Shown here: in pieces, positions 47 to 60,755 of the stretch
Numbering within the stretch: position 1 is the first letter of the stretch
How the letters are laid out: each line of letters starts with the position of its first letter
Assembly: GCA_031553435.1 (NCBI GenBank)
Contig: JAVBLQ010000033.1
Coordinates: 846 to 64,845 of the forward strand
DNA length: 64,000 bases
Source of the DNA: Bacteroidales bacterium
GTDB taxonomy: Bacteria > Bacteroidota > Bacteroidia > Bacteroidales > Azobacteroidaceae
Direction of reading: 5' to 3'
Position numbers and translations under genes: made by a program
Notes under the pieces: generated by a model
Database searches by the model: none
Told to the model about the DNA's origin: nothing
What the model saw: only the letters and a program-made list of their open reading frames with translations

Positions 47-121
47 ACTGAAAATGGAAAATTGAAAGTTGAAAATGAGGCTTGCGCACGACAAAATCAT
101 TTTCCATTTTCAATTCATTTT
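47..121. repeat. intergenic hairpin element, GAAAATG/GAAAATT word family, loop GCTTGCGCAC
   Basis: Arms about 59-78 and 97-116 are imperfectly complementary (gaattgaaaatggaaaatga type words). The loop holds GCTTGCGCAC at 80-89. The right arm overlaps the GH28 stop codon (115-117, minus strand). Confidence 0.7.
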
Positions 122-1515
122 GCATGTGTCGGAATCTTAGCCTCTTCCCCTAACACCACATTGTTCATCACAATATTGTATGCATTGGTGATGCTTAGTG
201 CATTCTTTACCGTGTCAATTTTCACATTTGAAAAATAAATATCGTGTACAGGCTTTTCCGGAAAACCTTGAACAACAATTCCGGCAGCAGAAGCTTTCCG
301 GCAAGTAAGGCTATCGACATAGATATTGCTGATATCCGTGCTGTGGCCTTGTCCTTCGCCATGATAATAAGATGTGATGAAAAAACAATCTTCCACATCT
401 CCGAATGACACATTATTGACATAAATATCACGGATAAATCCTCCACGGTCAGCATTTGATTTAAGATAAATGCCTCGTTTGCAATATCCCCCAAAACTGC
501 AATTTTCTATAAATACATTACGTACTCCGGCCGACATTTCACTGCCGATAACTACTCCATGCAAACCTTTGAATTTACAATTACGGATGATGATGTTTTC
601 GGAAGGCATAGCCGTTGCACGTCCTTCATCATCCCTGCCTGCTTTGATGGCTACATTATCATCACCATTATCGAAATTCATATCTTCGATCAGCACATTC
701 TTACAATATTCCGGATCGATACCGTCATTATTAATGTTTTTGGCGATAAAATTAACAGCACGAACCGTAGCATTCTCACATTTAAGCAGATGCACACACC
801 AAAAAGGAGAGTTGGTGATTGTTACACCTTGTATCAGAATATTTTTTGTTTCGATCAATTGCAGCAATTGCGGACGGAGATAATCGCCTTTTCCGAATAT
901 ACGATCTTTAATCGGAACGTTTTTATGATTCATTTCGCGCGAACGGGCTTGCGCTTCACTTTGAAGTTCTTTTCCCGTAGCCTCATTGATCATGCGCCAT
1001 TTACTGAAAGTTCCGGAAGCATTTCCATTGATGGTTCCTTCTCCTATAATCGACACATTTTCAAGTCTGTAACCATAAATGAGAGGACTATAATTATAAA
1101 GCATTGTTCCTTCCCAACTGCTGAGCACAGCAGGCAAGTATTGATCCGGATCGGAAGCAAATTTAAGTGTCGCTCCTTTTTGCAGTTCAAGACAAATATT
1201 ACTTGCCAGATGAAGAGGCCCGTCGATAAAATAAATTCCCGGAGGAACAACAATATGCACACCATTCTTTTCTTTTGTCAAAGCAATAGCCTTTTCAAAT
1301 GCCGGTTTACAATTTGTGACCGAATCACCGGTAGCTCCGAGCGTATCGACAGAAACTTTATATTCGGGAATGGCAGGAGCCTTGATATTTTTCAGGATGG
1401 CATCACGCATTTCTTCCCGGGTGAGTTGTTTATCTGCTTTTTCTTCGGTGCATGAAAAGAAAGCAAAACTCAACAGTAATATGGAAAAGAAGATTTTTTT
1501 CATATAATGAAACAT
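115..1515 (-). CDS. glycoside hydrolase family 28 (polygalacturonase-like), probable lipoprotein
   Basis: 466-aa ORF with GH28 signature blocks NNDGIDPE, GDDNVAIKAG, GLHGVVIGSE and RGIYLKS. N-terminal signal ends in FFSC. Alternative start is M5 at 1503. Confidence 0.85.
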   Translation of the reverse strand: MFHYMKKIFFSILLLSFAFFSCTEEKADKQLTREEMRDAILKNIKAPAIPEYKVSVDTLGATGDSVTNCKPAFEKAIALTKEKNGVHIVVPPGIYFIDGPLHLASNICLELQKGATLKFASDPDQYLPAVLSSWEGTMLYNYSPLIYGYRLENVSIIGEGTINGNASGTFSKWRMINEATGKELQSEAQARSREMNHKNVPIKDRIFGKGDYLRPQLLQLIETKNILIQGVTITNSPFWCVHLLKCENATVRAVNFIAKNINNDGIDPEYCKNVLIEDMNFDNGDDNVAIKAGRDDEGRATAMPSENIIIRNCKFKGLHGVVIGSEMSAGVRNVFIENCSFGGYCKRGIYLKSNADRGGFIRDIYVNNVSFGDVEDCFFITSYYHGEGQGHSTDISNIYVDSLTCRKASAAGIVVQGFPEKPVHDIYFSNVKIDTVKNALSITNAYNIVMNNVVLGEEAKIPTHAK

Positions 1516-1589
1516 TTTAGCTTACAACTTGTTTTGAATTCAATGCAAAATTAAGAACAAATATATACATATTCTATATTCAAAAGTAT

Positions 1590-1597
1590 TACATTTG
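1590..1597 (+). promoter_or_regulatory. candidate Bacteroidetes -7 promoter box TACATTTG (TAnnTTTG)
   Basis: Exact match to TAnnTTTG, about 87 nt upstream of the 1684 start. Confidence 0.35.
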
Positions 1598-1618
1598 CAG
1601 TTTAAAAGAATTGATAGT

Positions 1619-1660
1619 GGACAATTGATAACAATTTTGCCGAAAAATTGTCAATTATCC
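1619..1660. repeat. 42-nt imperfect palindrome, GACAATTG word family
   Basis: ggacaattgataacaattttgccgaaaaattgtcaattatcc. Core stem is acaatttt/aaaattgt around loop gccg. Lies in the divergent region between GH28 (-) and mlaE-like (+). Confidence 0.55.
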
Positions 1661-1683
1661 ATTGCTATTGTCAACTGTAGAAA

Positions 1684-2427: not shown

Positions 2428-3201
2428 ATGATAGAAGTAAAACACGTTGTCAAATCATTTGAAGGAAGAATTGTTTTAAAAGATATATCTACCGTTTTTG
2501 AAGAAGGGAAAACTAATCTGATCATTGGTCGAAGCGGTTCGGGAAAAACCGTTCTTATCAAGAATGTCATCGGCTTAATGAAACCCGATTCGGGTGAGAT
2601 TCTTTACTCTGGAAGAGATATTATCCATATGGATGAAAAAGAACTGAAAATGATGCGCCGTGAAATGGGAATGTTGTTTCAAGGTTCAGCTTTGTTCGAC
2701 TCAATGACAGTGATGGAAAATGTAATGTTTCCATTGCAAATGTTTTCCTCCGCAACTAATAAAGAAAAGCAAAAAAGAGCACAGTTTTGCCTCGACAGGG
2801 TTAATCTGAGTGAAGCCGGCCACCTTTATCCCTCCGAAATCAGTGGTGGGATGATGAAAAGAGCCGCCATCGCCCGGGCTATTTCCTTAAATCCCAAATA
2901 TTTATTTTGTGATGAGCCCAACTCCGGCTTAGATCCTAAGACTTCCTTGCTTATCGATGACCTGATTCATGATATTACAAAGGAATATCAAATGACAACA
3001 GTCATCAATACTCACGATATGAATTCAGTAATGGGTATCGGGGAAAATATTGTTTTTACCAATAACGGAGAAAAAGCATGGACCGGCACCAAAGACGATA
3101 TCATGACTTCTACCAACAAAGATCTGAACGACTTTATTTTTGCTTCGGATTTATTCCGTAAAGTCAAAGAGGTTGAGTCATTTAATAATAGTGAAGGATA
3201 A
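2428..3201 (+). CDS. mlaF: ABC transporter ATP-binding protein (MlaF-like)
   Basis: Walker A GRSGSGKT, ABC signature ISGGMMKRAAIARA, Walker B LFCDEP. Confidence 0.8.
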   Translation: MIEVKHVVKSFEGRIVLKDISTVFEEGKTNLIIGRSGSGKTVLIKNVIGLMKPDSGEILYSGRDIIHMDEKELKMMRREMGMLFQGSALFDSMTVMENVMFPLQMFSSATNKEKQKRAQFCLDRVNLSEAGHLYPSEISGGMMKRAAIARAISLNPKYLFCDEPNSGLDPKTSLLIDDLIHDITKEYQMTTVINTHDMNSVMGIGENIVFTNNGEKAWTGTKDDIMTSTNKDLNDFIFASDLFRKVKEVESFNNSEG

Positions 3202-3204
3202 ATA

Positions 3205-3288
3205 ATATGCCAATAAGATAATATGCCGATATGCCAATGAAATTTGGCAAACTGATAAGCATATTATCCTATTGGCACATTGGCATAT
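3205..3288. repeat. intergenic hairpin element, ATATGCCAAT word family
   Basis: Left arm atatgccgatatgccaat (3221-3238) pairs 16/18 with right arm attggcacattggcatat (3271-3288). An extra word copy sits at 3205-3214. The right-arm 18-mer is identical to 37755-37772. Confidence 0.75.
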
Positions 3289-3311
3289 TAATAAATCGGT
3301 ACATTAAATTC

Positions 3312-5747
3312 ATGAAAATAATGAAATTCGGCGGAACATCCGTAGGTTCCGTAAAAAGTATTTTAAGTGTTAAAAAAAATGTTGAATCGGTTGAAGAACC
3401 CGTCATTATTGTAGTTTCTGCCTTGGGTGGAATAACCGATCAATTGATTTACACGTCCAAATTAGCATCACAGGGAGATTATTTATACGAAAAAGAATAT
3501 AATGATATTGTATATCGTCATATCGAGCTGACGGAAGGAGTGATTCCGGATCTGAAGTTACGTAATACTGTTTTAGGGGATATATCCGCATTGCTGGACG
3601 AACTGGGAAATATATTCAAAGGCGTTTTCCTGATTCAGGATTTATCTCCCAAAACTTCGGATATTATTGTTAGTTACGGAGAACGACTTTCCGCTCTGAT
3701 TATCAGCAATGTAATTGAAAATGCAAAACTTTTCGATTCACGAGAATTTATTAAAACAGAAAAACAATTCAACAAACATATCGTTGACTTTTCTATAACC
3801 AACGGATTAATCCGGAAAACATTTTCACCACTACCGCAAATTTCAGTAGTGCCGGGATTCATTGCCAGTCACAAGGAAACCGGAGAAGTAAGTAACCTGG
3901 GAAGAGGAGGTTCCGATTACACAGCGTCCATTATCGCAGCTGCTTTAGAAGCTTCTGTTCTTGAAATATGGACGGATGTTGATGGTTTTATGACTGCAGA
4001 TCCCAAAGTAATCAGTAATACTTATGTGATAGATCGTTTGAGTTACATCGAAGCGATGGAACTTTCCAACTTTGGAGCCAAAGTGATCTATCCTCCCACT
4101 ATTTTTCCGGCATATCATAAAAATATTCCAATCAGGATTAAAAATACATTCAATCCCGAAGGAACCGGAACGCTCATCACAAGAGACAAAGGAGAAGGCG
4201 GCAAGTCTATCAAGGGAATTTCATCCATCAGCAATACTTGCCTGATTACGGTACAAGGGCTTGGAATGGTAGGCGTGATCGGTGTTAATTACCGGATTTT
4301 CCGTATTCTGGCCAAAAATGGGATCAGCGTATTTATGGTTTCCCAGGCTTCATCTGAAAATACAACTTCATTTGCCGTCAGAAATGAAGATTCCGATCTG
4401 GCTGTTAAGGTGTTAAGAGAAGAATTTGCCTTGGAAATGTCTCAAGGCGAAATCAATGATATCAAACCGGAGAAAGATTTGGCAACACTCGCTATTGTGG
4501 GTGAAAATATGAAACGTACACCCGGAATTGCCGGAAAACTTTTCGGTACGCTCGGAAGAAGTGGAATCAATGTAATTGCCTGTGCACAGGGAGCTTCTGA
4601 AACAAATATTTCTTTTGTTATCAAAGCAAAACATTTGCGGAAAGCACTGAATTCAATCCACGATTCTTTTTTCCTTTCAGAATATCAGGTGTTGAATATT
4701 TTCCTGACAGGAATTGGTACTGTCGGTAGTAATCTGTTGGAACAGATCAGGATGCAGCAACCTAAACTCATGCAGCAAAATAGTCTGAAAATCAAAGTGG
4801 TAGGCATTGCAAGTTCTCAAAAAGCTATTTTCGACAGAAATGGCATTGATCTGGAAAACTATCGTCAGATTTTGAAAAACGACGGGCTGGAAAGTTCCCC
4901 TCATTTTCTGAAAGAAGAAATCCTGAAAATGAATATTTTCAATTCCGTATTTGTCGATTGTACGGCAAGTTCTCAGATATCAGCGTTATATCAGGATTTA
5001 TTATCTCAAAATATTTCGGTAGTCACCGCCAATAAAATTGCAGCATCTTCTTCTTACGAAAATTATTTGCATCTGAAAGAAACCGCCCGGAAAACAAGTG
5101 CAAAATTCTTATTTGAAACCAATGTCGGAGCAGGTCTACCCATCATCAACACGATGAATGCCTTGACCAACAGCGGAGATAAGATTTTGAAACTAAAAGC
5201 AGTTCTTTCCGGCACATTGAATTTTATTTTCAATACCATCAGCGCAGATATTCCTTTAAGCAAAGCAATTTTGATGGCCAAAGAAGCAGGTTTTTCAGAA
5301 CCCGATCCGCGGATTGATTTAAGTGGAACAGATGTTGTCCGGAAATTGGTAATTCTTTCCAGAGAAGCCGGATATCGTGTTGAGCAGGAAGATGTTGTTA
5401 AAAATCTTTTTGTTCCCAACCAATACTTTCAAGGTTCTTTAGATGATTTTTGGAAAAAAATTCCGGAATTGGATGCCGAATTTGAAGATAAACGGGAAAA
5501 ACTCGAATTTCAAAACAAGAAATATCGGTTTGTTGCCGAAATGGACAATGGCAAATGCCGGGTAGGTCTGGAAGAAGTTGAACAAGGAAATCCTCTGTAC
5601 GACCTGGAAGGAAGTAACAACATTATCCTGATGACAACCGAAAGATACAATGAATATCCCATGTTGATCAAAGGATATGGAGCCGGTGCAGGAGTCACTG
5701 CCGCCGGAGTGTTTTCGGATATTATCTCGATTGCAAACATCAGATAA
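3312..5747 (+). CDS. thrA: bifunctional aspartokinase / homoserine dehydrogenase
   Basis: MKIMKFGGTSVG aspartokinase N-terminus, ACT-type middle region, homoserine dehydrogenase C-terminal half (GYGAGAGVTAAGVFSDI). The ORF track starts at 3231 inside the hairpin, so I prefer the ATG at 3312 (or 3321). Confidence 0.9.
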   Translation: MKIMKFGGTSVGSVKSILSVKKNVESVEEPVIIVVSALGGITDQLIYTSKLASQGDYLYEKEYNDIVYRHIELTEGVIPDLKLRNTVLGDISALLDELGNIFKGVFLIQDLSPKTSDIIVSYGERLSALIISNVIENAKLFDSREFIKTEKQFNKHIVDFSITNGLIRKTFSPLPQISVVPGFIASHKETGEVSNLGRGGSDYTASIIAAALEASVLEIWTDVDGFMTADPKVISNTYVIDRLSYIEAMELSNFGAKVIYPPTIFPAYHKNIPIRIKNTFNPEGTGTLITRDKGEGGKSIKGISSISNTCLITVQGLGMVGVIGVNYRIFRILAKNGISVFMVSQASSENTTSFAVRNEDSDLAVKVLREEFALEMSQGEINDIKPEKDLATLAIVGENMKRTPGIAGKLFGTLGRSGINVIACAQGASETNISFVIKAKHLRKALNSIHDSFFLSEYQVLNIFLTGIGTVGSNLLEQIRMQQPKLMQQNSLKIKVVGIASSQKAIFDRNGIDLENYRQILKNDGLESSPHFLKEEILKMNIFNSVFVDCTASSQISALYQDLLSQNISVVTANKIAASSSYENYLHLKETARKTSAKFLFETNVGAGLPIINTMNALTNSGDKILKLKAVLSGTLNFIFNTISADIPLSKAILMAKEAGFSEPDPRIDLSGTDVVRKLVILSREAGYRVEQEDVVKNLFVPNQYFQGSLDDFWKKIPELDAEFEDKREKLEFQNKKYRFVAEMDNGKCRVGLEEVEQGNPLYDLEGSNNIILMTTERYNEYPMLIKGYGAGAGVTAAGVFSDIISIANIR

Positions 5748-7447: not shown

Positions 7448-7557
7448 GTGATGGATTAAAGTCGCTTCGCTTTTTGTGAACTCATTTCGTTCGTGGTGAA
7501 GCTTCACGGTGAACAAAGTGAACTTCACAGAGAAGTGAAGCGACCTTACCCTTTCAC
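7448..7557. repeat. ~110-bp palindromic repeat, GTGAAG-TCGCTTCGC family, copy 1 of 4
   Basis: gtcgcttcgc...gtgaactc...gtgaagcttcac...gaagtgaagcgac. Outer arms GTCGCTTCGC and GAAGCGAC are complementary. Starts 1 nt after the DUF4494 stop. Confidence 0.8.
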
Positions 7558-9285: not shown

Positions 9286-9321
9286 GGAACTGATTAAATT
9301 TTGTAACAACCTATTTATCTA

Positions 9322-9436
9322 GTGAAAGGTGAAGATCGCTTCGCTCTTTTGTGAACTCGTTTCACTTGTTGAGAAGAGATGATAAATAAAATTCATCTTT
9401 CACAGGAGATCGAAGTGAGCTTCACTTTTCACTTTT
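9322..9436. repeat. ~110-bp palindromic repeat, GTGAAG-TCGCTTCGC family, copy 2 of 4
   Basis: gtgaaaggtgaagatcgcttcgctcttttgtgaactcgtttcac...ctttcacaggagatcgaagtgagcttcacttttcac. Lies between convergent genes, so it may act as a bidirectional terminator. Confidence 0.8.
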
Positions 9437-10210: not shown

Positions 10211-11308
10211 TTATATTAAATAATTTACTGGGTTTGAATTTGTATCTGAAAAATGGATCGCAAAGTTAGGTATTTTTTTTGTAATTATTTCAAAAAAGAT
10301 TTCTTTTGTAAATATTTCGGATTCATAATGACCGATTGTCGCCAAAAGAATATTTTTTTCAACATCATAAAAATCATTGTATTTTGCTTCTCCGGTAATA
10401 AAAACATCGGCTTTTTGTCTGATGGCTTCCGGATAGAGGAACGATCCGCTACCTCCGCAAATGGCAATCTTCCGTATTTTTTTATTTCGTAAGGCTGAAT
10501 GTTGAATACATTTCAGGTTCAATATATTTTTCAATTTCTGAAGAAAATCCATCTCATTTTCTTCAACAGGCAATTCTCCGATAATTCCGGAACCGACCTT
10601 ATTCCACGTATTTTCAAGTGCATAAATATCATAAGCCGGTTCTTCATAAGGATGTGATGACAAAAGAGCCCGAACCACTGTATTTTTTTTATAAACAGGC
10701 AAAATGATTTCGATACGGGTTTCTCTTTCAAAATGTAAATCACCGGTTGCACCACAAAAAGGATTCGCATTTTTTCCTGCACGGAAAGAACCTTCACCTT
10801 CCAGATTGTAAGAACAAGAGTCGTAATCACCAATTTGTCCGGCTCCGGCTTCAAATAATGCACTGCGTACTTGTTCAGCTTGTGCGATAGGAACAAACGT
10901 AACCAGTTTCAACAGAGCATCTTTCTGAGGCATCAGAACTCTGGTATTTTGCAAACCTATTTTTTCTGCAATTTTAAAACTAACTCCATCGAATGCGTTA
11001 TCCAGGTTGGTATGAGCTGAGTAAATCGCAATCTGATGCTGGCAGGCTTTGATAATACAACGCTCAATATAGTTTTTTCCAATCAATGATTTAACCGGCT
11101 TGAAAAGAACAGGATGATGAGAAATAATCAGATTACAGGATAACTTAATAGCTTCATCAATAACACTTTCAGTAACATCCAGACAAAGTAATAGGCCGGA
11201 AATTTCCTGATCTGCATTTCCCACTTGCAAGCCGGAATTATCATAATTCTCCTGCAAGGATAGTGGAGCAAATTCTTCGATGATTGATGTTATTTCTTTG
11301 ATTTTCAT
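10211..11308 (-). CDS. Nif3-like dinuclear metal center protein
   Basis: 365 aa. NIF3 family blocks NYDNSGLQVG, IISHHP and GHYESE. Confidence 0.8.
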   Translation of the reverse strand: MKIKEITSIIEEFAPLSLQENYDNSGLQVGNADQEISGLLLCLDVTESVIDEAIKLSCNLIISHHPVLFKPVKSLIGKNYIERCIIKACQHQIAIYSAHTNLDNAFDGVSFKIAEKIGLQNTRVLMPQKDALLKLVTFVPIAQAEQVRSALFEAGAGQIGDYDSCSYNLEGEGSFRAGKNANPFCGATGDLHFERETRIEIILPVYKKNTVVRALLSSHPYEEPAYDIYALENTWNKVGSGIIGELPVEENEMDFLQKLKNILNLKCIQHSALRNKKIRKIAICGGSGSFLYPEAIRQKADVFITGEAKYNDFYDVEKNILLATIGHYESEIFTKEIFFEIITKKIPNFAIHFSDTNSNPVNYLI

Positions 11309-11311
11309 GAT

Positions 11312-11452
11312 GGTTACGAGTTACGAGTTACAAGTTACAAGTTACGAGTTACAAGTTACGGGTTACGGGTTACGAGTTACAGAAATTGAGTTTGGATCGT
11401 CACTCGTCACTTGTAATTTATCACTTGTAACCCGTGACTTGTCACTCGTAAC
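11312..11452. repeat. intergenic hairpin element, GTTACRR heptamer family
   Basis: Left arm 11312-11382 is about 10 tandem GTTACGA/GTTACAA/GTTACGG heptamers. Right arm 11399-11452 is tandem YYGTRAC heptamers. Loop is aaattgagtttggatc. Begins 4 nt from the NIF3 start and overlaps the last ~30 codons of the phoH ORF. Confidence 0.85.
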
Positions 11453-12385
11453 TTTATCAAACTTTTCATATGCTTCCACAATCCGTTGAACCAGTTTATG
11501 GCGGACAATATCTTTTTTCGTGAATTCTACTTTTCCGATCCCTTCTACATTTTTCAAAATATACATGGCTTGTATCAAACCTGATTTTTGGGTGGGAGGA
11601 AGATCGATTTGAGTAATATCTCCGGTAACAATCATTTTAGCATTCAATCCCAAACGGGTAAGAAACATTTTGATTTGGTGAACTGTTGTATTTTGTGCTT
11701 CATCCAAAATAATAACCGCATCATTCAATGTCCTTCCACGCATGTATGCAAGCGGAGCAATTTGAATGATGTTGTTTTCCATATGTTCTTTTAATTTCGC
11801 TGCCGGGATCATATCCTGCAAAGCATCATACAATGGTTGAAGGTAGGGGTCCAGCTTATCCTTTGTATCTCCGGGAAGAAAACCCAGCTTTTCTCCTGCT
11901 TCAACAGCCGGGCGACTTAAAATAATTTTTTTGACTTCTTTGTTTTTCAATGCTTTGACAGCCAATGCAATTGCCGTATAGGTCTTACCTGAACCGGCAG
12001 GGCCGATAGCAAATATCAAGTCATTCTTATCGAACTCCTTCACTAATTTTTGTTGATTTTCTGTTCGTGCAAGGATTGCCTTACCATTCATTCCGTGAAT
12101 AATAAGATTATCCTGATTAACAGTTAAGGGTGCTTTGCCTTTAACGATATCAATGATACTTTCTTCTGTCAGCAAATTATATTCAAGACAATATTTTTCA
12201 AGTTCTTTGATTTTTTCTTCGAAGGTTAGTAAATCGGTATCATCGCCGATCACTTTCATTACATTTCCTCTGGCAACAATTCTCAGTTTTGGGAACAATG
12301 ACCTGATTAATTGAAAATTAACATTGTTAATTCCGAAAAAGATAACAGGGTCAACGCTATCTATAATAATTATTCGTTCTATCAT
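11363..12385 (-). CDS. phoH: PhoH-family ATPase
   Basis: Walker A GPAGSGKT and Walker B ILDEAQN. The C-terminal ~30 aa ([29 protein letters not shown]) are translated from the heptamer hairpin. Confidence 0.85.
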
Positions 12386-14129: not shown

Positions 14130-14159
14130 CGAAGGATGCTAAGGGTAAATTATTTTTCA

Positions 14160-14167
14160 TATCTTTG
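14160..14167 (+). promoter_or_regulatory. candidate -7 promoter box TATCTTTG
   Basis: TAnnTTTG match 47 nt upstream of the 14214 start. Confidence 0.35.
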
Positions 14168-14213
14168 TAGCAAATCAAGCAATTAGAACACAAACAGTAT
14201 AAAGCATTTTATT

Positions 14214-14462
14214 ATGAAACACATGAGTTTAGATAATATCTACAATGAAATAATGCTTTTGTCGGATGCTGACCGGAAGAAATTATACAACCGGATGAAA
14301 AAAGAATTTAATCCGGATAGAGAGATTGTTGCATATACAACAGTTGGTAAGTCTCTTACAAAGAAAGAATATGTTGAAAAGATTGAAAGGGCTATTGCAG
14401 AGGCTGACAAAGGCAAACTAATTTCGGATGAAGAATTAGAAAAAGAGATTGCAACGTGGTAA
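14214..14462 (+). CDS. putative type II antitoxin
   Basis: 82-aa acidic/basic helical ORF whose stop overlaps the GTG start of a ParE/RelE-like reading frame by 7 nt. This is classic toxin-antitoxin operon geometry. Confidence 0.5.
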   Translation: MKHMSLDNIYNEIMLLSDADRKKLYNRMKKEFNPDREIVAYTTVGKSLTKKEYVEKIERAIAEADKGKLISDEELEKEIATW

Positions 14463-14708
14463 AACATACAGTTCGCTGGTCTGAAGAATCAAAAATAGAT
14501 TTAAAAGAAATTTTTGAATACATCAAAAAAGTAGAAAGCCGAAATCGTGCAAAGCATGTTGTTTCAGGTATCAGAGATGCAGGAAAATGGTTCAGTTCGA
14601 TATGCTGTAAAATGGAGTTACAAAATATCATACACTACAGATGAAAAATGTGTGAATATTGTCCGCGTATTCCATACCTCGCAAAGTTCTGAGAAAATTA
14701 ATTTATGA
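14456..14708 (+). pseudogene. RelE/ParE-family toxin, disrupted by frameshift or internal deletion
   Basis: Frame A (14456-14644) gives VKHTVRWSEESKIDLKEIFEYIKK...AKHVVSGI, a ParE-like N-terminus. The +1 frame gives ...VRYAVKWSYKISYTTDEKCVNIVRVFHTSQSSEKINL with stop at 14706-14708, a ParE-like C-terminus. The central segment is missing or shifted. Confidence 0.55.
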
Positions 14709-18003: not shown

Positions 18004-18068
18004 AATTGAAAATGGACAATTGAAAATGAGAAGTGATTTTCGTGCGCAAGCAATCATTTTCCATTTTG
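18004..18068. repeat. intergenic hairpin element, GAAAATG word family, loop GCTTGCGCAC (minus strand)
   Basis: aattgaaaatggacaattgaaaatgag...cgtgcgcaagca...atcattttccattttg. The reverse complement aligns with the element at 47-121, including the identical 10-mer at 18042-18051. Lies in the divergent region between dgt and cbpA. Confidence 0.75.
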
Positions 18069-19016: not shown

Positions 19017-19044
19017 GTTGAAGTCTTAAATTAAGAAATCGATG

Positions 19045-19082
19045 TGAACATTTTTTGGTACGCGGTGCACCCAAAACATTCA
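19045..19082. repeat. minimal 38-nt version of the GTGCACC-family element
   Basis: tgaacattttttgg-tacgc-ggtgcac-ccaaaacattca. It shares both termini (TGAACAyTTTTGG / CCAAAACATTCA) with the 125-nt element at 60631-60755 but carries a single GTGCAC word. Confidence 0.55.
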
Positions 19083-19108
19083 TATCGGTCACAATAAAAA
19101 GCATAATT

Positions 19109-19396: not shown

Positions 19397-19512
19397 GTGA
19401 AAAATTAAAAGTTAACTTCATTAGTGTTACTCCTGTAAAACGATTTGTTTCAAAATCCAAAGAAAGCTTACAGACACAAAAATATAAGTAACGACCGTAT
19501 AAATATATTGTT

Positions 19513-21973: not shown

Positions 21974-22049
21974 AAAAATTAACAATTAAGAATGAAAAAT
22001 GGGACTTGCACCTGACAATTCATTTTTCATTCTTAATTGTTAATTTTTT
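21974..22049 (+). terminator. long near-perfect hairpin plus T-run (AATTAAGAATGAAAAATG words), loop ACTTGCACCT
   Basis: aaaaattaacaattaagaatgaaaaatg pairs with ttcatttttcattcttaattgttaattttt (about 28 bp), followed by ttttttt. Lies 12 nt after the CE15 stop. Confidence 0.75.
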
Positions 22050-37773: not shown

Positions 37774-37791
37774 ATCACATTAATTTATTAA

Positions 37792-38637
37792 ATGATTATG
37801 GACGAAAGAAATATATATTTACCTTATAAAATGCGCCTGGCCAAAGTAACAGAAGAAGCGCCCGGCGTCCGCACTTTCCGTTTGGAATTTATGAATCCGG
37901 AAGAAGGAGAAAACTTCAATTTCCGTACCGGACAATTTGCCGAATATTCAGTATTTGGAGAAGGAGAATCAACTTTTTGTATCGCATCTCCACATACCCG
38001 TAAAGGTTATGTAGAATGTACTTTCCGTAGGGCAGGACGGGTGACTTCGGCTTTGTCCAATCTGGAAGAAGGTGCAGTTGTCGGTTTTCGCGGCCCATAT
38101 GGTAATACTTTCCCTATTGATGAATGGAAAGGTAAAAATCTGGTTTTCATTGCCGGAGGAATCGCTTTGCCACCGATGCGCAGCGTAATCTGGTCATGTC
38201 TGGATAATCGTGAGAATTACAAAGATGTAACCATTTTCTATGGAGCGAAAACGGTTGCGGACTTAGTATATAAAGACGAATTGAAAGACTGGGAAGAACG
38301 TCCTGACGTAAATCTTTACACAACAGTTGATCCGGGTGGAGAAACTCCCGATTGGAAAGGTCAGGTAGGATTCGTGCCCATGATCGTGGAAAAATTTGCT
38401 CCTGTAGCCGAAAATACAATTGTTATTGTTTGCGGCCCTCCAATCATGATCAAGAATACTTTCCCTGTATTGAAGAAATTAGGATTTACAGACGAAAACA
38501 TTTATACTACTCTCGAAAACCGGATGAAATGCGGATTCGGGAAATGCGGCAGATGCAATGTCGGAAAAACTTACGTTTGTAAGGACGGACCGGTGTTTAC
38601 TGCTGCGGAATTGGCAGAGCTACCTAACGAATACTAA
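37792..38637 (+). CDS. FAD/NAD(P)-binding oxidoreductase with C-terminal [2Fe-2S] (AsrB/HydG/FlxA/PyrK-like)
   Basis: 281 aa. Ferredoxin-reductase fold (RTGQFAEYS, FIAGGIALPP) and C-terminal CGFGKCGRCNVG cluster motif. Alternative start at 37798. Confidence 0.75.
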   Translation: MIMDERNIYLPYKMRLAKVTEEAPGVRTFRLEFMNPEEGENFNFRTGQFAEYSVFGEGESTFCIASPHTRKGYVECTFRRAGRVTSALSNLEEGAVVGFRGPYGNTFPIDEWKGKNLVFIAGGIALPPMRSVIWSCLDNRENYKDVTIFYGAKTVADLVYKDELKDWEERPDVNLYTTVDPGGETPDWKGQVGFVPMIVEKFAPVAENTIVIVCGPPIMIKNTFPVLKKLGFTDENIYTTLENRMKCGFGKCGRCNVGKTYVCKDGPVFTAAELAELPNEY

Positions 38638-38640
38638 AAA

Positions 38641-38717
38641 GAAAGTGAAAAGTGAAAAATTAAAAGTGAGCTTACGCCCAAAATAACTTTTCACTTTTCA
38701 CTTTCTTTTTCACTTTC
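38641..38717. repeat. intergenic hairpin element, GTGAAAA word family, loop GCTTACGCCC
   Basis: gaaagtgaaaagtgaaaaattaaaagtgag pairs with ttttcacttttcactttctttttcactttc. Loop motif at 38670-38679. Lies between convergent genes and overlaps the stop of the 38710 esterase gene. Confidence 0.85.
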
Positions 38718-40206: not shown

Positions 40207-40221
40207 GTTTTTTTAATATTC

Positions 40222-45200: not shown

Positions 45201-46294
45201 ATACCGGAATCGGTATTCCGGCCGATAAACTGAACCAGATTTTCGATCGTTTTTATCAGGTGGATGATAATTATACTACCGGGACCGGACTGGGTCTGGC
45301 CATTACAAAAGAGATTATCACCGCCCATCATGGAGAAATCAGGGTGAACAGCGAAGTGGAAAAAGGAACCACATTCCTGATCCGCCTTCCCTTGGGAGAT
45401 CAGCATATCCTGGATTCGCAAAAAGTACCGGCAAGGAATGTAGACATGTCGTGCATCGAAGAATTATCCATGAATCAGGATATTAATTTCTCTGAAGATA
45501 TTGAAAACAATGAAAACGAAGAAGATAAAACAAAGTCCAAAATATTGATTGTAGAAGATAACAGAGAATTAGTAGAACTTCTGAATCGTTTATTTTCATC
45601 CGTCTACGAAGTTCATACAGCCTTTGATGGAGAAGAAGGTCTGGAAAAAGCCAAAGAAATACAACCGAATATCATTTTAAGCGATATCATGATGCCTAAA
45701 ATGTCAGGCATCGAAATGTGTCGCAAGATCAAAGATAATTTTGATACCTGTCACATCCCCGTCATTCTCTTGACTGCCCAAAATTCGGAAGAATACTTGA
45801 TTGAAGGCTTGAAAATGAGCGCCGACGATTATATCACTAAACCATTCAATGTAAAACATTTGTTCACCCGATGCAACAATCTGTTGAACAACAGAAAATT
45901 ACTACAAAAGAAATATGCAAAACTTTCAGACTCCAACCCGGATACACTGGCAACAAACAGTTACGATCAACAGTTCCTGACCCAATGTATCCAGATTATA
46001 GAAAACAACATCAGCGATATTGATTTTGATGTCAACCAGTTTGCCCAGGAAATAGGACTGGGAAGAACCAAACTCTTTTTGAAAATAAAAGGCATCACCG
46101 GCTTAACTCCGAATGACTTTATTCTCAATGTCCGCCTGAAAAAATCACAAGTATTATTGGAAGAACCCGGAGAAAGAACCATTTCGGAAATTGCCTACGA
46201 CGTAGGATTCAATTCCCCCAGTTATTTCATCAAACGATTCAGGGAGCTGTATGGGGTGACGCCTTCGCAGTTCAAGAAAAAAGTGAAAAACTAA
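42290..46294 (+). CDS. hybrid two-component system sensor/regulator (HTCS)
   Basis: About 1334 aa. Periplasmic beta-propeller repeats (GLSQSTV, WIGT motifs) and a Y_Y_Y region, a TM helix, H-box FFTNISHEFRTPLTL, ATPase G-boxes, receiver ILIVEDN...SDIMMP, and AraC HTH SPSYFIKRFRELYGVTPSQF. The ORF track start 42233 is a TTG and is rejected. Confidence 0.9.
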   Translation: MILRYILLLTIIIVVSHLSFSQEIHFQKIDAEDGLSQSTVTSIYQDEFGIMWIGTKDGLNRYSGDDFQVFRPITGNKNSIFNNNIGTVCGDRNGHIYVRCKFAAVEYDMRLNIFHTIQENNVQTISYGLNRLWICTSDSIYSYDSKGKKKQFYYAFPEKKIKITCILENSNKEIYVGTQNSGLFIIDGNKKRLNYLPGVHIIQIYEDSKRNMWISTRDDGLIKMDRNGEFVNYKNDPQDKNSISDNYTRAVCEDNFGNYWIATFKGLNKLDLSTGKITYYQKENKPYSLVNSSLICITKDQQGSLWIGSYHGGINIFNPEYEIYNYYYPDESIPGKLSSPFVVRMQEDEKGNLWIATEGGGLNYLDRETKHFTVYRHQSQSNSISTNNIQGLYLDRNRNALWIGTLLGGLDKLDLKSKKFTNYHHISGDKESLVNNNVRKIIPYKDSLLLSTHNGIVMFKPENGKCRRLFDKPQFDYRFIIDMIVDGDNNLWFSYSLGLIKYNLETGVLKEYLAADIPIGNNLVNVIFQDREKRIWIGSSGDGIFLYEPQHDKFKPYNSGNSDLINNYILDIKESLSGYLLISTNQGFSRFDIENGKFYNYNKQNGFPVTALNPYGMFVTSNNQIFLSGTKMMISFNEKELNSNVKPCQVNFISMELNNKLIVPNDDSGILSESLLYQSTIQLNHKHSVMSINLSLPDYVSLLKNKIYYKLEGFDNTWTDINYRNRIIYTNLSPGKYKLVIKSVDENSSNDRILKELNIIVTPPFYRTWTAYGLYLFILVISIYLIASFYSSKLKLRNSLDLEKKEKIQIEKINQSKLRFFTNISHEFRTPLTLIISQLEMLIERNDIKPQVYNRLVNVHRNAIRMKRLITELLDFRKQEQGFKELKFSKQNIYLFLEEVYLSFKEYARFREINLEFLNKDSFLEVWFDVEQMEKSVNNILSNAFKYTPQKGTIAISVEIDNHNVYIRISDTGIGIPADKLNQIFDRFYQVDDNYTTGTGLGLAITKEIITAHHGEIRVNSEVEKGTTFLIRLPLGDQHILDSQKVPARNVDMSCIEELSMNQDINFSEDIENNENEEDKTKSKILIVEDNRELVELLNRLFSSVYEVHTAFDGEEGLEKAKEIQPNIILSDIMMPKMSGIEMCRKIKDNFDTCHIPVILLTAQNSEEYLIEGLKMSADDYITKPFNVKHLFTRCNNLLNNRKLLQKKYAKLSDSNPDTLATNSYDQQFLTQCIQIIENNISDIDFDVNQFAQEIGLGRTKLFLKIKGITGLTPNDFILNVRLKKSQVLLEEPGERTISEIAYDVGFNSPSYFIKRFRELYGVTPSQFKKKVKN

Positions 46295-46363
46295 AAACTA
46301 AAAGTGAAAAGTAAATTGTTATGCGCAAGTCCAACTTTTCACTTCTCACTTTTAGTTTTTCAC
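46278..46363. repeat. intergenic hairpin element, GTGAAAA/CTAAAAA word family, loop ACTTGCGCAT (minus strand)
   Basis: aaaaagtgaaaaactaaaaactaaaagtgaaaagt pairs with ttttcacttctcacttttagtttttcac. The HTCS stop (46292-46294) lies inside the left arm. Confidence 0.85.
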
Positions 46364-46425
46364 TCCATTGTACGAAATTAATGCTTTTCCGTATGATTCT
46401 GATATGCTTTTGGGGACGTCATTTT

Positions 46426-51208: not shown

Positions 51209-51312
51209 GGTGAAGGGGTCGCTTCGCTCCTGTGAACTCACTTCGTTCGTTGTGAAGGTTTCACTGTAAACGAAGTGAATTTCACAGGAGCGAAGCGACT
51301 TTCACCTTTCAC
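51209..51312. repeat. ~110-bp palindromic repeat, GTGAAG-TCGCTTCGC family, copy 4 of 4
   Basis: ggtgaaggggtcgcttcgctcctgtgaactcacttcgttcgttgtgaaggtttcactgtaaacgaagtgaatttcacaggagcgaagcgactttcacctttcac. Lies inside the PUL operon between SusD and the next gene. Confidence 0.85.
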
Positions 51313-54301: not shown

Positions 54302-55237
54302 ATGAAAAAAAATCTACTGTTAACAACGATTTGTGCATTTGCATTATGCACAGGATCTTTATTTGCACAAGAACGTCAAACAATCGCATCTTGGGATTTT
54401 GATAGTTTTGATGGTGCTCCGGGTACAGCAACTTACTCTTATTGGGGTACAGACGAAGTCGGAGGAACCACAAGACCTTGGGCTTTAAACGAATACCAAA
54501 GTAAGAAAAATGCTACGTTCGGAGCTGTATATGAAGGTGTAAGAGATGGAGAAAATATCTTAGCCAACATATCACACACATTAGTTACTACAACTTCATT
54601 CGGAAGCTACTGTCTGAATGCTTCCGGTGCCTGGCACAGAAATGATGAATTAGGACAAAGTACCCGATATTGGCTGATGGATAATATCACCACTACAGGA
54701 ATAAAAGACCTGATCATTACTTTATACATGGCGGGTGTCGGTTCTCAAGGCCCGACTCAATTCAAATTCGGATACAAAATAGGTAATGGCAATTGGGTGG
54801 ACGGAGACTTTAAGACAATCCGTTCTAATGCCGCTGCCGGAGCTCCGCTTGCAGTCGGTGACCTATGGACAGAAACAGTTCCTGTAGCATGTAACAATCA
54901 GGCAAAAGTTTCTTTCAGATGGGTAGTAGGAGAGAATATGTTGAATGGTTCTCCATTAGTTTCAGGAAGCGCTGTCCGTGTAGACAAAATTTTAGTTACC
55001 GGTATTGCTACAGCCACATCCATCTCAAACGCAAAAGCAGAACAATCAGTTTACGCCTCCGGCAACAAACTATTCAGCGATGTCGATGCCAACATCACAG
55101 TATTTAACTCTGTAGGAGCAAGTGTTTACAACGGAGCCATTCTGAAAGGCGAATCCGTTGAATTACCAACAGGAATCTATGTTGTAAAAGCCGTATCGAA
55201 TAACAATACAGAATCTGTTAAAGTTGTAATCAGATAG
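54302..55237 (+). CDS. secreted protein of unknown function with T9SS C-terminal sorting domain
   Basis: 311 aa. Signal peptide, about 230 aa of beta-rich sequence with no motif I recognise, and a tail ending in GIYVVKAVSNNNTESVKVVIR. Confidence 0.5.
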   Translation: MKKNLLLTTICAFALCTGSLFAQERQTIASWDFDSFDGAPGTATYSYWGTDEVGGTTRPWALNEYQSKKNATFGAVYEGVRDGENILANISHTLVTTTSFGSYCLNASGAWHRNDELGQSTRYWLMDNITTTGIKDLIITLYMAGVGSQGPTQFKFGYKIGNGNWVDGDFKTIRSNAAAGAPLAVGDLWTETVPVACNNQAKVSFRWVVGENMLNGSPLVSGSAVRVDKILVTGIATATSISNAKAEQSVYASGNKLFSDVDANITVFNSVGASVYNGAILKGESVELPTGIYVVKAVSNNNTESVKVVIR

Positions 55238-55320
55238 AACACTGAACACACGGATTACACGGAGAGTCACAGAAATATAATATTCCGCGAAACTCCGTGT
55301 ACTCCGCGTATTCCGCGTTC
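55237..55320. repeat. intercistronic hairpin element, ACACGGA/TACGCGGA word family
   Basis: gaacactgaacacacggattacacggag is about 70 percent complementary to ctccgtgtactccgcgtattccgcgttc. Begins at the upstream stop codon. Confidence 0.65.
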
Positions 55321-55338
55321 TATTCAAATACAAAAATC

Positions 55339-58374: not shown

Positions 58375-58393
58375 AACTATATACGGTTGCGGA

Positions 58394-58454
58394 AAAATTT
58401 ACGCCTGTCGTAAGAAAATTTACGCCTGTCGTAGCAAAATTTACGCCTGTCGTA
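58394..58454. repeat. 3 x 21-bp tandem direct repeat AAAATTTACGCCTGTCGTA
   Basis: Identical 19-mers at 58394, 58415 and 58436, each holding the inverted pair TTACG-N5-CGTAA. A degenerate fourth copy, aaaatttacttgcaat, sits at 58475. Confidence 0.85.
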
Positions 58455-58506
58455 AATTTTTCCACAAACGGATGAAAATTTACTTGCAATAATATTGAAA
58501 TTGATA

Positions 58507-58557
58507 TGAACATTTTTGAGGGCACCGTGTACCGTGTACCGTGCACCTTTGCACCTA
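58507..58557. repeat. half element of the GTGCACC/GTGTACC word family
   Basis: tgaacatttttgagggcaccgtgtaccgtgtaccgtgcacctttgcaccta. It shares the terminus TGAACAyTTTTG and the word array with 60631-60755, but I found no complementary arm nearby. Confidence 0.6.
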
Positions 58558-58606
58558 AAAGATTCATATCGGCACTATATAAAACAACACAAACTAATTT
58601 TCAACC

Positions 58607-60622
58607 ATGCTAAAAAATATATCCATCCCAATCAAACCATTACTGATTCTCCTGCTTATAGGACTCGGTAATACGGCATATGCTGAAAATCATGTGATTG
58701 AACTACCCAAATGTATCAGTTCGCACATGGTGCTTCAGCGCGAAACGCCTGTAAAGTTGTGGGGATGGGGAACGCCCGGAGATACGATTATCGTGGAATT
58801 AACCAGACAAGGCCAGATCTTCAAAGACTCCGTCAAAGTAGATGAAAACAAACGTTGGCTCATCAGGTTGCCAGCTCAACCGGTATGTAGTGAAGCCTGT
58901 AAGCTGAAATTCCATATCAAAGGCCATCCGGAAATCACACAGACACTGGATGATATACTGATTGGAGATGTTTGGTTCGCCGGAGGCCAGTCTAACATGG
59001 AGAAAAAAGTGAACTATATGCTCGAAACAGGACAATATACACAGGAAGCCGACAATTATCCGCAAATCCGTTCGTTCAGGGCGAGCTATTATCCGCAAAC
59101 AAGCCCTCAGGAAAGAGTCAACAGCGCATCAGGTACCTGGTTTGTGTGCAACAGTACGGAAATTGCAGATAAAGTCTCTGCCGTAGCCTATGTTTATGCC
59201 CGTAGTTTATATGAAAATCTCAATATTCCGATAGGCATCATGCAATCATACCGGGGAGGAACGGAAATCGAGACATGGATGAGCCCCGGGATATTCAATG
59301 ATCCCGAATTATGTAAAATAGCGGGACGCAAAGCATATATAACTCCGGGAACCGCATCCCAGGATCATTCCCTTCATTTTAACGGACAAATCAATCCCCT
59401 GCTCAATTTCCCTATCAAAGGTTTTATTTTCTATCAGGGAGAAAGCAATATCAAACGGGCGCTGGAATATCGTTTCATGATGAGAAAACTGATTGAAGAT
59501 TGGAGAAACCTCTGGGGAATGGGCGATTTGCCTTTTTATTATGTCCAATTGCCTAATATTTATGCAACTTCTTCATACGACGAATCCAACTGGCCGGACT
59601 GCCGCGAACAACAAGCATTGCTTTTGTCTGACTATGTGGCAAACCTTGGTATGGCCGTTACAATCGACACCAATGATGAAGCGCTTAATCCGGACAACAA
59701 CATCAATATCCATCCGCATAATAAAAAACCGGTGGGAGAAAGACTTGCCCGTATTGCATTGAAAAACACATACCATTTCGATATCCTTGCCGAAGGACCT
59801 GCCGTGAACCGTTATGAATTTTCCGGCAATTCCGTTTATCTGTATTTCAAAAATTATGGCGACGGATTAAAAATAAAAGCAGGAGAAAGCTCCCTCAAAG
59901 GTTTTATCATCAGCGGAAGCGATAAAAAATTCTATACGGCAACCGCAACAATACATGATGACAGTACTGTCGTGGTCAGTAGCAGTTCCGTTTCCAGTCC
60001 GGTAGCCGTACGCTATGACTGGGCAAGGAATCCCATAGGTAATTTGTATAATTCCATTGATATACCGGCAACACCGTTCAGAACAGATATCTGGAAATCG
60101 AAGTTTACCTATACATCTTTCCAGTCTTCCTGTACTTCAAAAAGTAGTGATGCGGATTTAATGATGATTAAAGTAAACGGGGTAACACTTCCTGACTTCG
60201 ATCCTCAAAAGCTAACTTACAACTATATCCCTGAAAATCAGAATTATCAGGACGTAAGTGCTGTAACCAACAATCCTTTCGCCTCAATCGTCAAAGTAGA
60301 AACAGAAAACAAAGTGACACTGAAAGTAACAGCCGAAAATGGTTCCGTTCAATCATACGAAATCAACTTCAAAAGTCCGACATCTATACCGGAAAACACA
60401 ATCCAATTATTTCATGTTTTTCAGGAAAACAAAAAGATAATCATACAAAACAACTCAGGCAAACAACATCAGATCAAAATATATAATCACAACGGACAGC
60501 ATATTATCTCTGATAAAATAAAAGAAAATGAGCAGAAGACTTATACTTTGCCACTTGGTGTTTATATTATCGATTGGATAAATAGCGGGCAAAGCAATAG
60601 CATGAAATTTATTTTGAAGTGA
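58607..60622 (+). CDS. sialate O-acetylesterase-like esterase with cadherin-like domain and T9SS C-terminal sorting domain
   Basis: 671 aa. GDVWFAGGQSNME and FYQGESN blocks (SASA family), a cadherin-like sandwich (DADLMMIKVNGVTLPDFDPQKLTYNY...YEINFK), and a tail ending in GVYIIDWINSGQSNSMKFILK. Confidence 0.7.
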   Translation: MLKNISIPIKPLLILLLIGLGNTAYAENHVIELPKCISSHMVLQRETPVKLWGWGTPGDTIIVELTRQGQIFKDSVKVDENKRWLIRLPAQPVCSEACKLKFHIKGHPEITQTLDDILIGDVWFAGGQSNMEKKVNYMLETGQYTQEADNYPQIRSFRASYYPQTSPQERVNSASGTWFVCNSTEIADKVSAVAYVYARSLYENLNIPIGIMQSYRGGTEIETWMSPGIFNDPELCKIAGRKAYITPGTASQDHSLHFNGQINPLLNFPIKGFIFYQGESNIKRALEYRFMMRKLIEDWRNLWGMGDLPFYYVQLPNIYATSSYDESNWPDCREQQALLLSDYVANLGMAVTIDTNDEALNPDNNINIHPHNKKPVGERLARIALKNTYHFDILAEGPAVNRYEFSGNSVYLYFKNYGDGLKIKAGESSLKGFIISGSDKKFYTATATIHDDSTVVVSSSSVSSPVAVRYDWARNPIGNLYNSIDIPATPFRTDIWKSKFTYTSFQSSCTSKSSDADLMMIKVNGVTLPDFDPQKLTYNYIPENQNYQDVSAVTNNPFASIVKVETENKVTLKVTAENGSVQSYEINFKSPTSIPENTIQLFHVFQENKKIIIQNNSGKQHQIKIYNHNGQHIISDKIKENEQKTYTLPLGVYIIDWINSGQSNSMKFILK

Positions 60623-60630
60623 AATCGGTA

Positions 60631-60755
60631 TGAACACTTTTGGGTGCAAAGGTGCACGGTGCAGGGTGCACGAATTGCTTACGCCTGATAGTGCACTACA
60701 TCTGATAAACCGACCGTGCACCGTGCACCGTGTACCGTGCACCCAAAAACATTCA
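60631..60755. repeat. intercistronic hairpin element, GTGCACC/GTGTACC word family, loop GCTTACGCCT
   Basis: tgaacacttttgggtgcaaaggtgcacggtgcagggtgcacg pairs with cgtgcaccgtgcaccgtgtaccgtgcacccaaaaacattca. Loop motif at 60677-60686. Confidence 0.85.

Follow-up and report, generated by a model that had tools for sequence, protein, structure and literature searches.

Why should a bacterium carry a long hairpin in almost every sizeable gap between its genes, and by what process would such hairpins arise? This question is raised by a 64,000-nt stretch of a Bacteroidales bacterium (GenBank assembly GCA_031553435.1, contig JAVBLQ010000033.1), here called the window. We found about 23-25 intergenic hairpins in it, 52-143 nt long, and the arms of most of them consist of tandem words of 7 or 8 nt. 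With a probability of roughly 55%, we consider that these hairpins form a non-autonomous superfamily of palindromic foldback repeats, which would live in the manner of repetitive extragenic palindromes (REPs), REPINs or MITEs (miniature transposable elements with inverted repeats), would have been amplified in this lineage and would be common to its mobile elements.

The initial annotation of the window, made by reading its letters, had listed long hairpins with tandem-word arms in nearly every larger gap. Repeat finding returned 58 inverted pairs in the window, and the long pairs coincided with the hairpins listed there. Tandem Repeats Finder (TRF) gave periods of 7, 8, 14 and 21 nt in both arms, with 2-10 copies, and the arrays were all intergenic. 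In addition, a separate inverted-repeat scan found 19 hairpins scoring at least 30, none of them wholly within a gene, and RNAfold supported five more members with indels or short arms (at 1611, 7448, 18004, 19038 and 58501). The folded domains measured 52-163 nt per gap, and the stems were 18-57 bp long and A/T-rich. The folding energies differed from those of dinucleotide-shuffled controls, with z of about -4 to -12 in hairpin-bearing gaps compared with about 0 to -3 in gaps without hairpins. All hairpins lie in, or abut, intergenic DNA. The listed starts of several open reading frames (ORFs) were over-extended across hairpins (thrA, the yggS-like, dnaJ-like and MerR-like genes, hdrA and the ORF listed at 60630), and after correction of the starts a hairpin was present in about 23 of about 28 gaps of at least 59 nt. 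Together the hairpins measure about 2.1 kb, or 3.3% of the window and around half of its intergenic DNA.

The assembly across the hairpins could be compared with Logan contigs of the Sequence Read Archive (SRA) run SRR23967709. One of them was identical to window 32279-33763 and covered the entire 33173-33270 hairpin, a second was identical to window 35395-36709, and a third stopped 31 nt inside the array at 26989. Since separate Logan contigs match the window base for base, the hairpins are not assembly artefacts. Meanwhile, Logan contigs L001, L299 and L300 begin or end within word arrays (at window 27019, 32279 and 36709). Short-read contigs thus break in the arrays, so that genomes rich in these elements should assemble poorly and stay fragmented, and the elements should be under-represented and under-counted in metagenome-assembled genomes (MAGs).

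The hairpins fall into at least eight word families within the 64 kb. The families named in the initial annotation were all recovered, and the member at 26332 is weak. The exact 18-mer ATATGCCAATGTGCCAAT, which had been reported at four loci, was confirmed at each of them, namely 3271 (-), 35291 (+), 36649 (+) and 37755 (-), with an expected number of 0. In each of the four hairpins of this octamer family, ATATGCCAAT-GTGCCAAT (the GTG variant) stands on one arm and the opposite arm has the ATA variant. Two of the hairpins are found in each orientation, within co-directional genes. Furthermore, four 110-mers align with a mean column identity of 74%, and the outer frame ATGAACAyTTTTGGG...CCCAAAArATTCAT is common to three elements that hold 1-2, about four and 4-5 GTGCACC words. 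Neighbouring hairpins tend to be of the same family (six adjacent pairs vs 2.5 expected, p = 0.03). Because the 18-mer with its arm asymmetry, the loop motif described below, the 110-mers and the outer frames are shared, we agree with the initial annotation that these are dispersed, related repeats and not independently evolved terminators. The shared features show that the copies are homologous across loci, and both orientations occur.

A loop motif connects hairpins with different words. The loop 13-mer GCTTRCGCMYRAY, searched with at most one mismatch, had seven matches in the window, and all of them were in hairpin loops with 11-12 of 12 flanking bases complementary. The seven hairpins come from five word families, and four of the matches are exact (about 0.06 expected). 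The same search in 1.42 Mb from 82 other loci gave 25 background matches, of which none had a palindromic context. On the opposite strand, the aligned loops give approximately ATTTTGTCRTGCGYAAGCMA. The core of the motif is GCTTRCGC on one strand and GCGYAAGC on the other, that is, a C(GYAA)G tetraloop of the GNRA type, and its single freely variable position is the N of GNRA. The octamer family carries degenerate versions of this loop, and the related GCGAAGC occurs in the arms of the 110-mers and in one phage copy. It is known that d(GCGAAGC) forms an unusually stable DNA mini-hairpin.

The arms of a hairpin resemble each other more closely than arrays of one word need do. Arm-to-arm identity in register was usually higher than identity after a one-word shift and than autocorrelation within an arm (for instance, 1.00 vs 0.81 at 21974 and 0.96 vs about 0.72 at 38636), and the complementarity exceeded what two independent arrays of one word would yield. 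The arms are thus mirror copies including their word variants, which implies recent palindromic duplication or copying across the palindrome; the initial annotation had supposed some copying or repair mechanism, or repeated mobilisation. Element 11313 has the opposite pattern, with a right arm homogenised to a variant word, and this suggests slippage within the arm after divergence. Meanwhile, the 14- and 21-nt periods and the unequal word counts in the frame family suggest that words were gained and lost as complete units.

Two Bacteroidales MAGs, L002 and L082, are the nearest relatives that were available. The HdrA of L002 is 89% identical to that of the window in amino acids (about 72-74% in nucleotides), and the MvhD of L082 shares a 90% cluster with the window MvhD. 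The window has elements at five of the six junctions of its hdr-type operon, and its spacers there are 64-89 nt long. In L002 and L082, by contrast, the operon junctions consist of overlapping genes or 1-8-nt spacers. The elements are, on this comparison, absent from the orthologous junctions of the closest relatives. A wider comparison took in 80 loci from many phyla (1.3 Mb) that surround HdrA orthologues. In it, periodic-arm hairpins were nearly absent from Bacteroidota relatives, and several Geobacter-type loci had two or three hairpins each, with the same architecture and other words.

Copies of the octamer family were also found on mobile elements. Labels from L119 to L300 stand for IMG/VR contigs and relatives compared with them, among them phages and an integrative and conjugative element (ICE), or for Logan contigs where so named. 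The octamer 18-mer pattern occurred in 16 IMG/VR stretches, and three of these contigs hold complete hairpins, two or three apiece, in which the words are the same, the outer sequence is similar and the loops are core-like. One of them, L125/L288, represents a CTnDOT-like tra operon (an ICE) with octamer-family hairpins at two junctions. At the same two junctions its relative L289 (TraJ 72% identical) has spacers of 3 nt and 31 nt, and in L290 traJ and traK are 35 nt apart. The myovirus-like phage L132/L291 carries octamer-family hairpins at two sites of the structural operon, after the major head and sheath genes, and these two copies share about 35 nt, non-word sequence included. Its sister phage L292 has a sheath protein of 95% amino acid identity and flanks of 86-92% nucleotide identity, and at both sites it has spacers of 25 nt and 18 nt, each of them a small native hairpin of 5-7 bp. 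We regard the comparison of L291 and L292 as direct presence/absence evidence that speaks for copy-paste. The initial annotation had proposed to look for such differences in related strains; in L002 and L082 the elements are absent at the orthologous junctions, and presence/absence was seen in the phage pair.

Arrays of the GTTACRR word were found in 115 stretches of viral contigs, with inverse words nearby in 28 of them. A permuted control word gave 35 stretches, with one inverted pair among them. Since the permuted word also yields arrays, heptamer arrays and inverted pairs are general, and we claim no word-specific enrichment. In many phage contigs of 32-58% G+C (L148, L141/L144/L168, L145, L149 and L164), three GGTTACR heptamers and three inverse copies flank an A/T-rich spacer of 75-130 nt. 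This arrangement, which is repeated several times in some contigs, looks like an operator or an origin.

Some further arrays were noticed in these genomes. In IMG/VR contigs L119, L124 and L130, the octamer 18-mer follows ATAATGTGTTAAT as it does at window 36640, at a conserved site upstream of a gene starting MAQKFKLIERKN; from this start we presume a candidate HU-like DNA-binding protein of Bacteroidales. In IMG/VR contigs L123 and L126, about 15 octamers (TGCCAAT / TGCCAGA type) form a direct array for which an inverted partner is not obvious, and TTTTTGACCCC repeats come next. In the ICE contig L125, at a junction of the tra operon (4915-4965), the direct heptamers CAGTTAA CAGTCAA CAGTGAT CAGTTAA lead into a core-like GGCGTAA. 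In L002, the junction orthologous to window 37704-37785 contains a direct-only heptamer array (TTAAGAA/TTAAAAA, about five units, at 10595-10643) without an inverted partner.

The position of the hairpins relative to genes bears on whether they arose as DNA or as RNA. When the fold energies of both strands were compared, no preference for the transcribed strand was found, and the two largest asymmetries (11313 and 55224) favour the non-transcribed strand. The orientation of the loop motif relative to transcription is mixed, and the GNRA-type loop falls on the sense strand in only about half of the cases that are informative. Divergent 5' regions hold four elements, each at a distance of 9-18 nt from a start codon. 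The initial annotation noted that most of the hairpins lack a U-tract; a sense-strand U-tract was clear at 9321 and 21974 alone, with 38636 as a marginal case. Thus, the absence of strand bias, the mixed loop orientation, the several 5' sites and the scarcity of U-tracts indicate an origin at the DNA level. The PhoH ORF (11363-11465, - strand) continues for about 30 codons beyond its Pfam/NCBIfam domain into the GTTACRR hairpin, which adds a periodic tail of 29-34 residues (VTSDK...). Here the element took the place of the native stop codon of phoH.

An element has two inverted arms, in which 2-10 words of 7 or 8 nt stand in tandem and every word keeps a conserved core of 3-6 nt, and some elements also have a conserved outer frame. 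Many have an asymmetric A/T-rich loop bearing the GC-rich mini-hairpin motif. If the hairpins are foldback repeats that spread as DNA, slipped pairing in steps of 7, 8, 14 or 21 nt would lengthen and shorten the arms, and copying across the palindrome would keep them alike or reset them. New copies would be made by DNA copy-paste, probably on single-stranded hairpin DNA that is recognised through the loop, by an enzyme encoded elsewhere than in the element. The loop would be the conserved and probably recognised part, while the arms would need only to pair. In intercistronic or untranslated RNA, the long stem-loop may be cut by RNase III, protect 3' ends or terminate transcription weakly; such roles would be a side effect and not the cause of the existence of the element. 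A bolder version, which we put forward tentatively, is an undescribed prokaryotic foldback class whose GC-rich loop mini-hairpin (GNRA/GNA-type) would be recognised on single-stranded DNA by a putative enzyme, whose arms would grow by slippage and which would invade gene junctions in Bacteroidota chromosomes, ICEs and phages. In that case, a similar process might also have produced the inverted heptamer arrays that are found in Xanthomonas, Geobacter and cyanobacteria.

Several observations weigh against mobile foldback repeats. No transposase and no gene like the REP-associated tyrosine transposases (RAYTs; IS200/IS605-like Y1) is present among the 43 ORFs of the window. No target-site duplication recurs consistently at the element ends, and a conserved terminal tag is lacking. 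The elements are inverted repeats over their whole length. Direct repeats at the flanks were no commoner than at random positions, the sole 8-bp one being at 51210-51312. To fill five of the six junctions of one tight operon demands very strong targeting of gene junctions. In the L291/L292 pair, the native spacer was apparently replaced and not merely interrupted, which is odd for classical transposition. In addition, the 110-mer was not found outside the window: blastn of the 110-mer against plasmids and phages gave no match (nor did blastn of the octamer hairpins), its pattern had 0 matches in IMG/VR viral contigs, and the 35 stretches that it matched in JGI metagenome contigs were all chance matches. 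Finally, inverted heptamer arrays with arbitrary words are present in many taxa, and therefore part of the architecture may arise without mobility.

An origin in situ, which we think unlikely, would do without mobility altogether. A high rate of 7-8-nt slippage would expand short native palindromes (small hairpins like terminators), template switching would keep the arms symmetric, and the likeness of words across loci would come from preferred mutations or from gene conversion among hairpins close to each other. Such an origin would explain why the empty sites of L292 are hairpins of 5-7 bp exactly where L291 is filled, and why the words at window 33185 resemble the native junction of L002 (GGAAATTGA vs GGAAAATTGA). 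The direct-only heptamer array at one orthologous junction of L002, the direct-only arrays within the window, the local clustering of same-family hairpins and the finding of inverted heptamer arrays with a variety of words in phages and Geobacter-type loci, and for the permuted control word as well, are all consistent with it. However, it fits poorly with identical 18-mers of the same asymmetry that lie 32 kb apart and recur in other genomes, with a non-repetitive loop motif common to hairpins of unrelated words, with outer non-word sequence shared between copies and with the presence of both orientations, and L291 was filled twice by one family where L292 has it at neither site. Still less probable is that the hairpins are maintained for what they do in RNA, as selected terminators, attenuators or mRNA-stabilising or processing stem-loops like the REPs of E. 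coli operons, with their similarity as a by-product. Their stems are very stable, they are strictly extragenic and often begin at a stop codon, the phage copies come after the genes for the major head and sheath proteins, a common place for stabilising hairpins, and 21974 and 9321 resemble canonical terminators. Nevertheless, the transcribed strand has no excess stability and two of the largest asymmetries favour the other one, the sense strand bears the GNRA-type loop in no more than about half of the informative cases, four elements stand by start codons in divergent 5' regions, and most have no U-tract. Elements also lie between genes that overlap in relatives, and no Rfam family covers them.

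We would give slightly less credit again to the idea that the arrays are binding sites for polymerising ribbon-helix-helix or IHF/HU-type proteins, with a role in chromosome organisation or as operators or centromere-like sites. Heptads of 7 bp, whether arrayed directly or inverted, are the target of the omega protein of pSM19035, and tandem 8-bp boxes are that of MetJ. The words of the window are a conserved core plus 2-3 variable bases, the octamer arms have AAT/ATT every 8 nt over 4-5 units, and the GTTACRR arrays flank AT-rich spacers in many phage contigs. Analogous sites in Geobacter were read in this way by Aklujkar et al. (PMC2700814). However, at least eight word families in 64 kb would require as many proteins, the sites are at 3' ends and inside operons between coupled genes and not at promoters, relatives with the same genes lack the arrays, and no candidate for the binding protein was found. 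An assembly or amplification artefact that makes inverted duplications has next to nothing in its favour: the contig is metagenome-assembled and short-read contigs break within arrays, but separate Logan contigs are identical across hairpins, the elements respect gene boundaries, and the same family occurs in unrelated IMG/VR contigs. These alternatives are partly compatible with foldback repeats, since an element that spreads as DNA can also stabilise RNA or bind protein.

The initial annotation did not recognise the hairpins as a described class of element. The architecture itself, in fact, has precedent in Xanthomonas and in Geobacter metallireducens. In Xanthomonas, GGGAATC heptamers form intergenic inverted pairs, 70-75 per genome, whose length differs between related genomes while their type is preserved (Rehm et al. 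2015, PMC4692102). As in the window, convergent tandem heptamer arrays stand on opposite strands and can form a stem-loop or cruciform. Unlike the window, Xanthomonas has one G-rich word (the work was a G-quadruplex study), and no conserved loop, many families or phage and ICE copies were reported. In G. metallireducens, 'paired sites on opposite strands' contain 3-5 tandem repeats of 7-9 nt with variable spacing; they comprise several word classes, are intergenic (proB-proA included), are absent from a sister species and were read as IHF/HU 'putative global regulator binding sites' (Aklujkar et al. 2009, PMC2700814). The window agrees with both systems in having the same word arrayed on opposite strands within about 100 nt. 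The Geobacter sites differ from the window in their words, their lower density and the lack of a known shared loop, and no evidence of copy-paste was presented for them.

The hairpins resemble REPs, REPINs and bacterial interspersed mosaic elements (BIMEs) in being extragenic hairpins in operons and at 3' ends (about 24 in 64 kb, some abutting gene ends), in both orientations and with a lineage-specific high copy number. The 110-mer has the size of a REPIN and a doublet-like build. BIME-1/RIP has a conserved central motif between inverted arms. However, the arms in the window are word arrays and not a fixed palindrome of 20-40 nt, they are A/T-rich, no RAYT gene is present in the 64 kb, and the REP/REPIN tag is missing, with GTAG near one of 23 element ends and CGTC near none of 23. 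The short tandemly repeated repetitive sequences (STRRs) of cyanobacteria were an earlier notice of comparable heptamer repeats. Like the window, these STRRs and the long simple-sequence repeats (LSSRs) prefer a 7-nt unit, are intergenic, are abundant in particular lineages and include several families per genome, and the 7-, 8-, 14- and 21-nt tandem arrays of the window, all intergenic, would be counted among them; the STRRs are mostly described as direct arrays, however, and a hairpin with a conserved loop does not define them. The Drosophila FB foldback elements have inverted arms built of short tandem repeats. Their arms are likewise long and vary in length by copy, but they are kilobase-scale and eukaryotic with some coding copies, and we imply no homology. 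The BrickBuilt MITE of Porphyromonas gingivalis is also a Bacteroidota element with an intergenic position, internal tandem repeats and small inverted ends, but it is a direct 23-nt minisatellite with 19 copies per genome and no inverted word arrays (PMC4596501). For the LSSRs we follow Mrazek et al. 2007 as far as they are cited in PMC4679880.

Among known classes, intrinsic terminators were rejected, given the U-tract in only two or three elements, the long A/T-rich stems, the four divergent 5' sites and the five elements inside one operon. Integron attC sites were rejected because the flanking genes are housekeeping genes syntenic with relatives, and the window has neither an integrase nor conserved core sites. 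The sigma-54 promoter, the IHF consensus and the inverted repeats of invertible promoters did not suit the words or the core, owing to misfits of spacing or context. As regards catalogued RNA, an Rfam search of the window gave no match at gathering thresholds, and only sub-threshold models of miRNA precursors (generic long hairpins) appeared. A literature search for the word sequences matched only primers.

What is new here is that one Bacteroidales genome holds eight or more word families, very densely packed, that a GNRA-type loop is conserved across families, that elements are inserted between formerly overlapping genes, and that one family is common to a chromosome, an ICE and phages with clean empty sites. 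The cross-family loop motif, the mixed orientation with 5' sites, the absence in the closest relatives and the ICE and phage copies go beyond the initial annotation. If copy-paste holds true, a small non-coding element can fill about half of the intergenic DNA of a bacterium, lodge between genes whose translation is coupled and be carried by phages and conjugative elements without a recognisable transposase signature. It would also offer a sequence-defined system for asking why bacterial heptamer arrays so often form inverted pairs, one that combines a conserved loop and word arms that vary with phages of 86-92% identity in which sites are filled or empty. A practical point is that ORF callers run genes through the elements, as shown by the PhoH tail and several false starts in the window.

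The individual elements are described below in window coordinates, with strands where they were assigned. The octamer family (ATGCCAAT) comprises 3197-3293 (18-mer on - at 3271), upstream of thrA with its real start at about 3312; 35274-35365 (18-mer on + at 35291), whose loop has a degenerate core (TTTTTTGCGTA...); 36639-36714 (18-mer on + at 36649), where the spacer of L002 is 4 nt; and 37704-37785 in the opposite orientation (18-mer on - at 37755), with the loop GTTACGAAAAA. The 110-mer copies are at 7448-7557, 9321-9433, 31376-31486 and 51210-51312. The copy at 7448, supported by folding and alignment, has outer GTGAARR words, TCGCTTCGC...GCGAAGCGA arms and an inner hairpin. That at 9321 is between convergent genes and has a T-rich tail on the + strand, that at 31376 is 18 nt from the uxuA start on its 5' side, and that at 51210 has the 8-bp direct repeat AAATAAAT on both flanks. 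The frame family includes the short member 19038-19089, in which the outer frame encloses [GTGCACC]n with 1-2 words, the member 58501-58572 with about four GTGTACC/GTGCACC words, chiefly on one arm, and the member 60631-60755 with 4-5 GGTGCAC words per arm and the core at 60677-60689, through which the ORF start listed at 60630 over-extends.

Two hairpins have GTTACRR words. The longest hairpin of the window, 11313-11455, has about ten of them per arm, with the right arm homogenised to GTGAC variants; it is 4 nt from a NIF3-like start, and the tail of the PhoH ORF reads through it. The other one, 26989-27103, has a 21-nt higher-order repeat and is 9 nt from the start of a HAD hydrolase on the 5' side. 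GTGAAGA words form 29111-29224, where the TGA stop of the upstream gene is within the first word and the loop has the core at 29175-29187 (-) and a small inner hairpin. The hairpin 38636-38710 (GTGAAAA words, 27-nt arms of 96% complementarity, core at 38670-38682) fills exactly the gap between two convergent stop codons, and 46282-46364 (GTGAAAA/ACTAAAA words, core at 46318-46330, -) gives the hybrid two-component gene its last four codons and stop.

The hairpin 49-121, supported by repeat finding, TRF and folding, has GAAAATG/GAAAATT words and the loop core GCTTGCGCACGAC at 80-92. GAAAATG words are also found at 18004-18067, in the divergent region upstream of the dnaJ-like gene, with the core at 18039-18051 (-). 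The hairpin 1611-1674, supported by folding, has GACAATTG-type words and is in a divergent (5') region 10 nt before an mlaE-like start. The arms of 21974-22048 are perfect over 28 bp with four non-identical heptamers, the core is degenerate (ACTTGCACCTGAC), and a terminator-like T-run follows. The hairpin 33173-33270, with the 14-nt words GAAAATTGACAAT, provides the last codons and stop of a CCG-domain gene and is reproduced in Logan contig L299. AAAACGT words form 32245-32315 (core at 32277-32289), where L002 has overlapping genes, and an AACGTT/AAAACGT array with a weak hairpin is at 26333-26366. The hairpin 55224-55333 (ACACGGA / TCCGCGT(A) words) is far more stable on the non-transcribed strand. 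The interior of 58391-58464 consists of three tandem 21-nt units (58394-58455), each a mini-hairpin TTTACG-CCTGT-CGTAAA with a core-like TTACGCCTG. In addition, a solo arm at 19397-19415 (GTGAAAAATTAAAAGT), just 3' of the MerR-like gene, resembles the left arm of 38636, and a direct-only 14-nt array at 40220-40248, whose reverse complement has GTGAAGAACTAAGA-type words, is at a 15-nt gene junction.

The window has a G+C content of about 39% and an ordinary Bacteroidales gene set, which includes thrA, phoH, truA, kup, a dGTPase gene, a dnaJ-like gene, a hybrid two-component regulator, SusC/SusD-type genes and the HdrA/MvhD-type flavin/iron-sulfur operon; no tRNA gene, Rfam family or transposase was found in it. 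Its exact proteins were matched solely by one NCBI contig and by SRR23967709, and eight of the ten window proteins that were checked are singleton 90% clusters. A GFO/IDH/MocA oxidoreductase (29216-30193, - strand) is placed in a 90%-identity cluster with 941 members, proteins of Bacteroides fragilis among them, and given these singletons it may have arrived by recent horizontal transfer. The 529-nt gap at 14130-14658 has no hairpin and contains two small unlisted reading frames (MKHMSLDNIYNEIMLLSDADRKK... and ...KHTVRWSEESKIDLKEIFEYIKK...), which look like an antitoxin/toxin-type pair.

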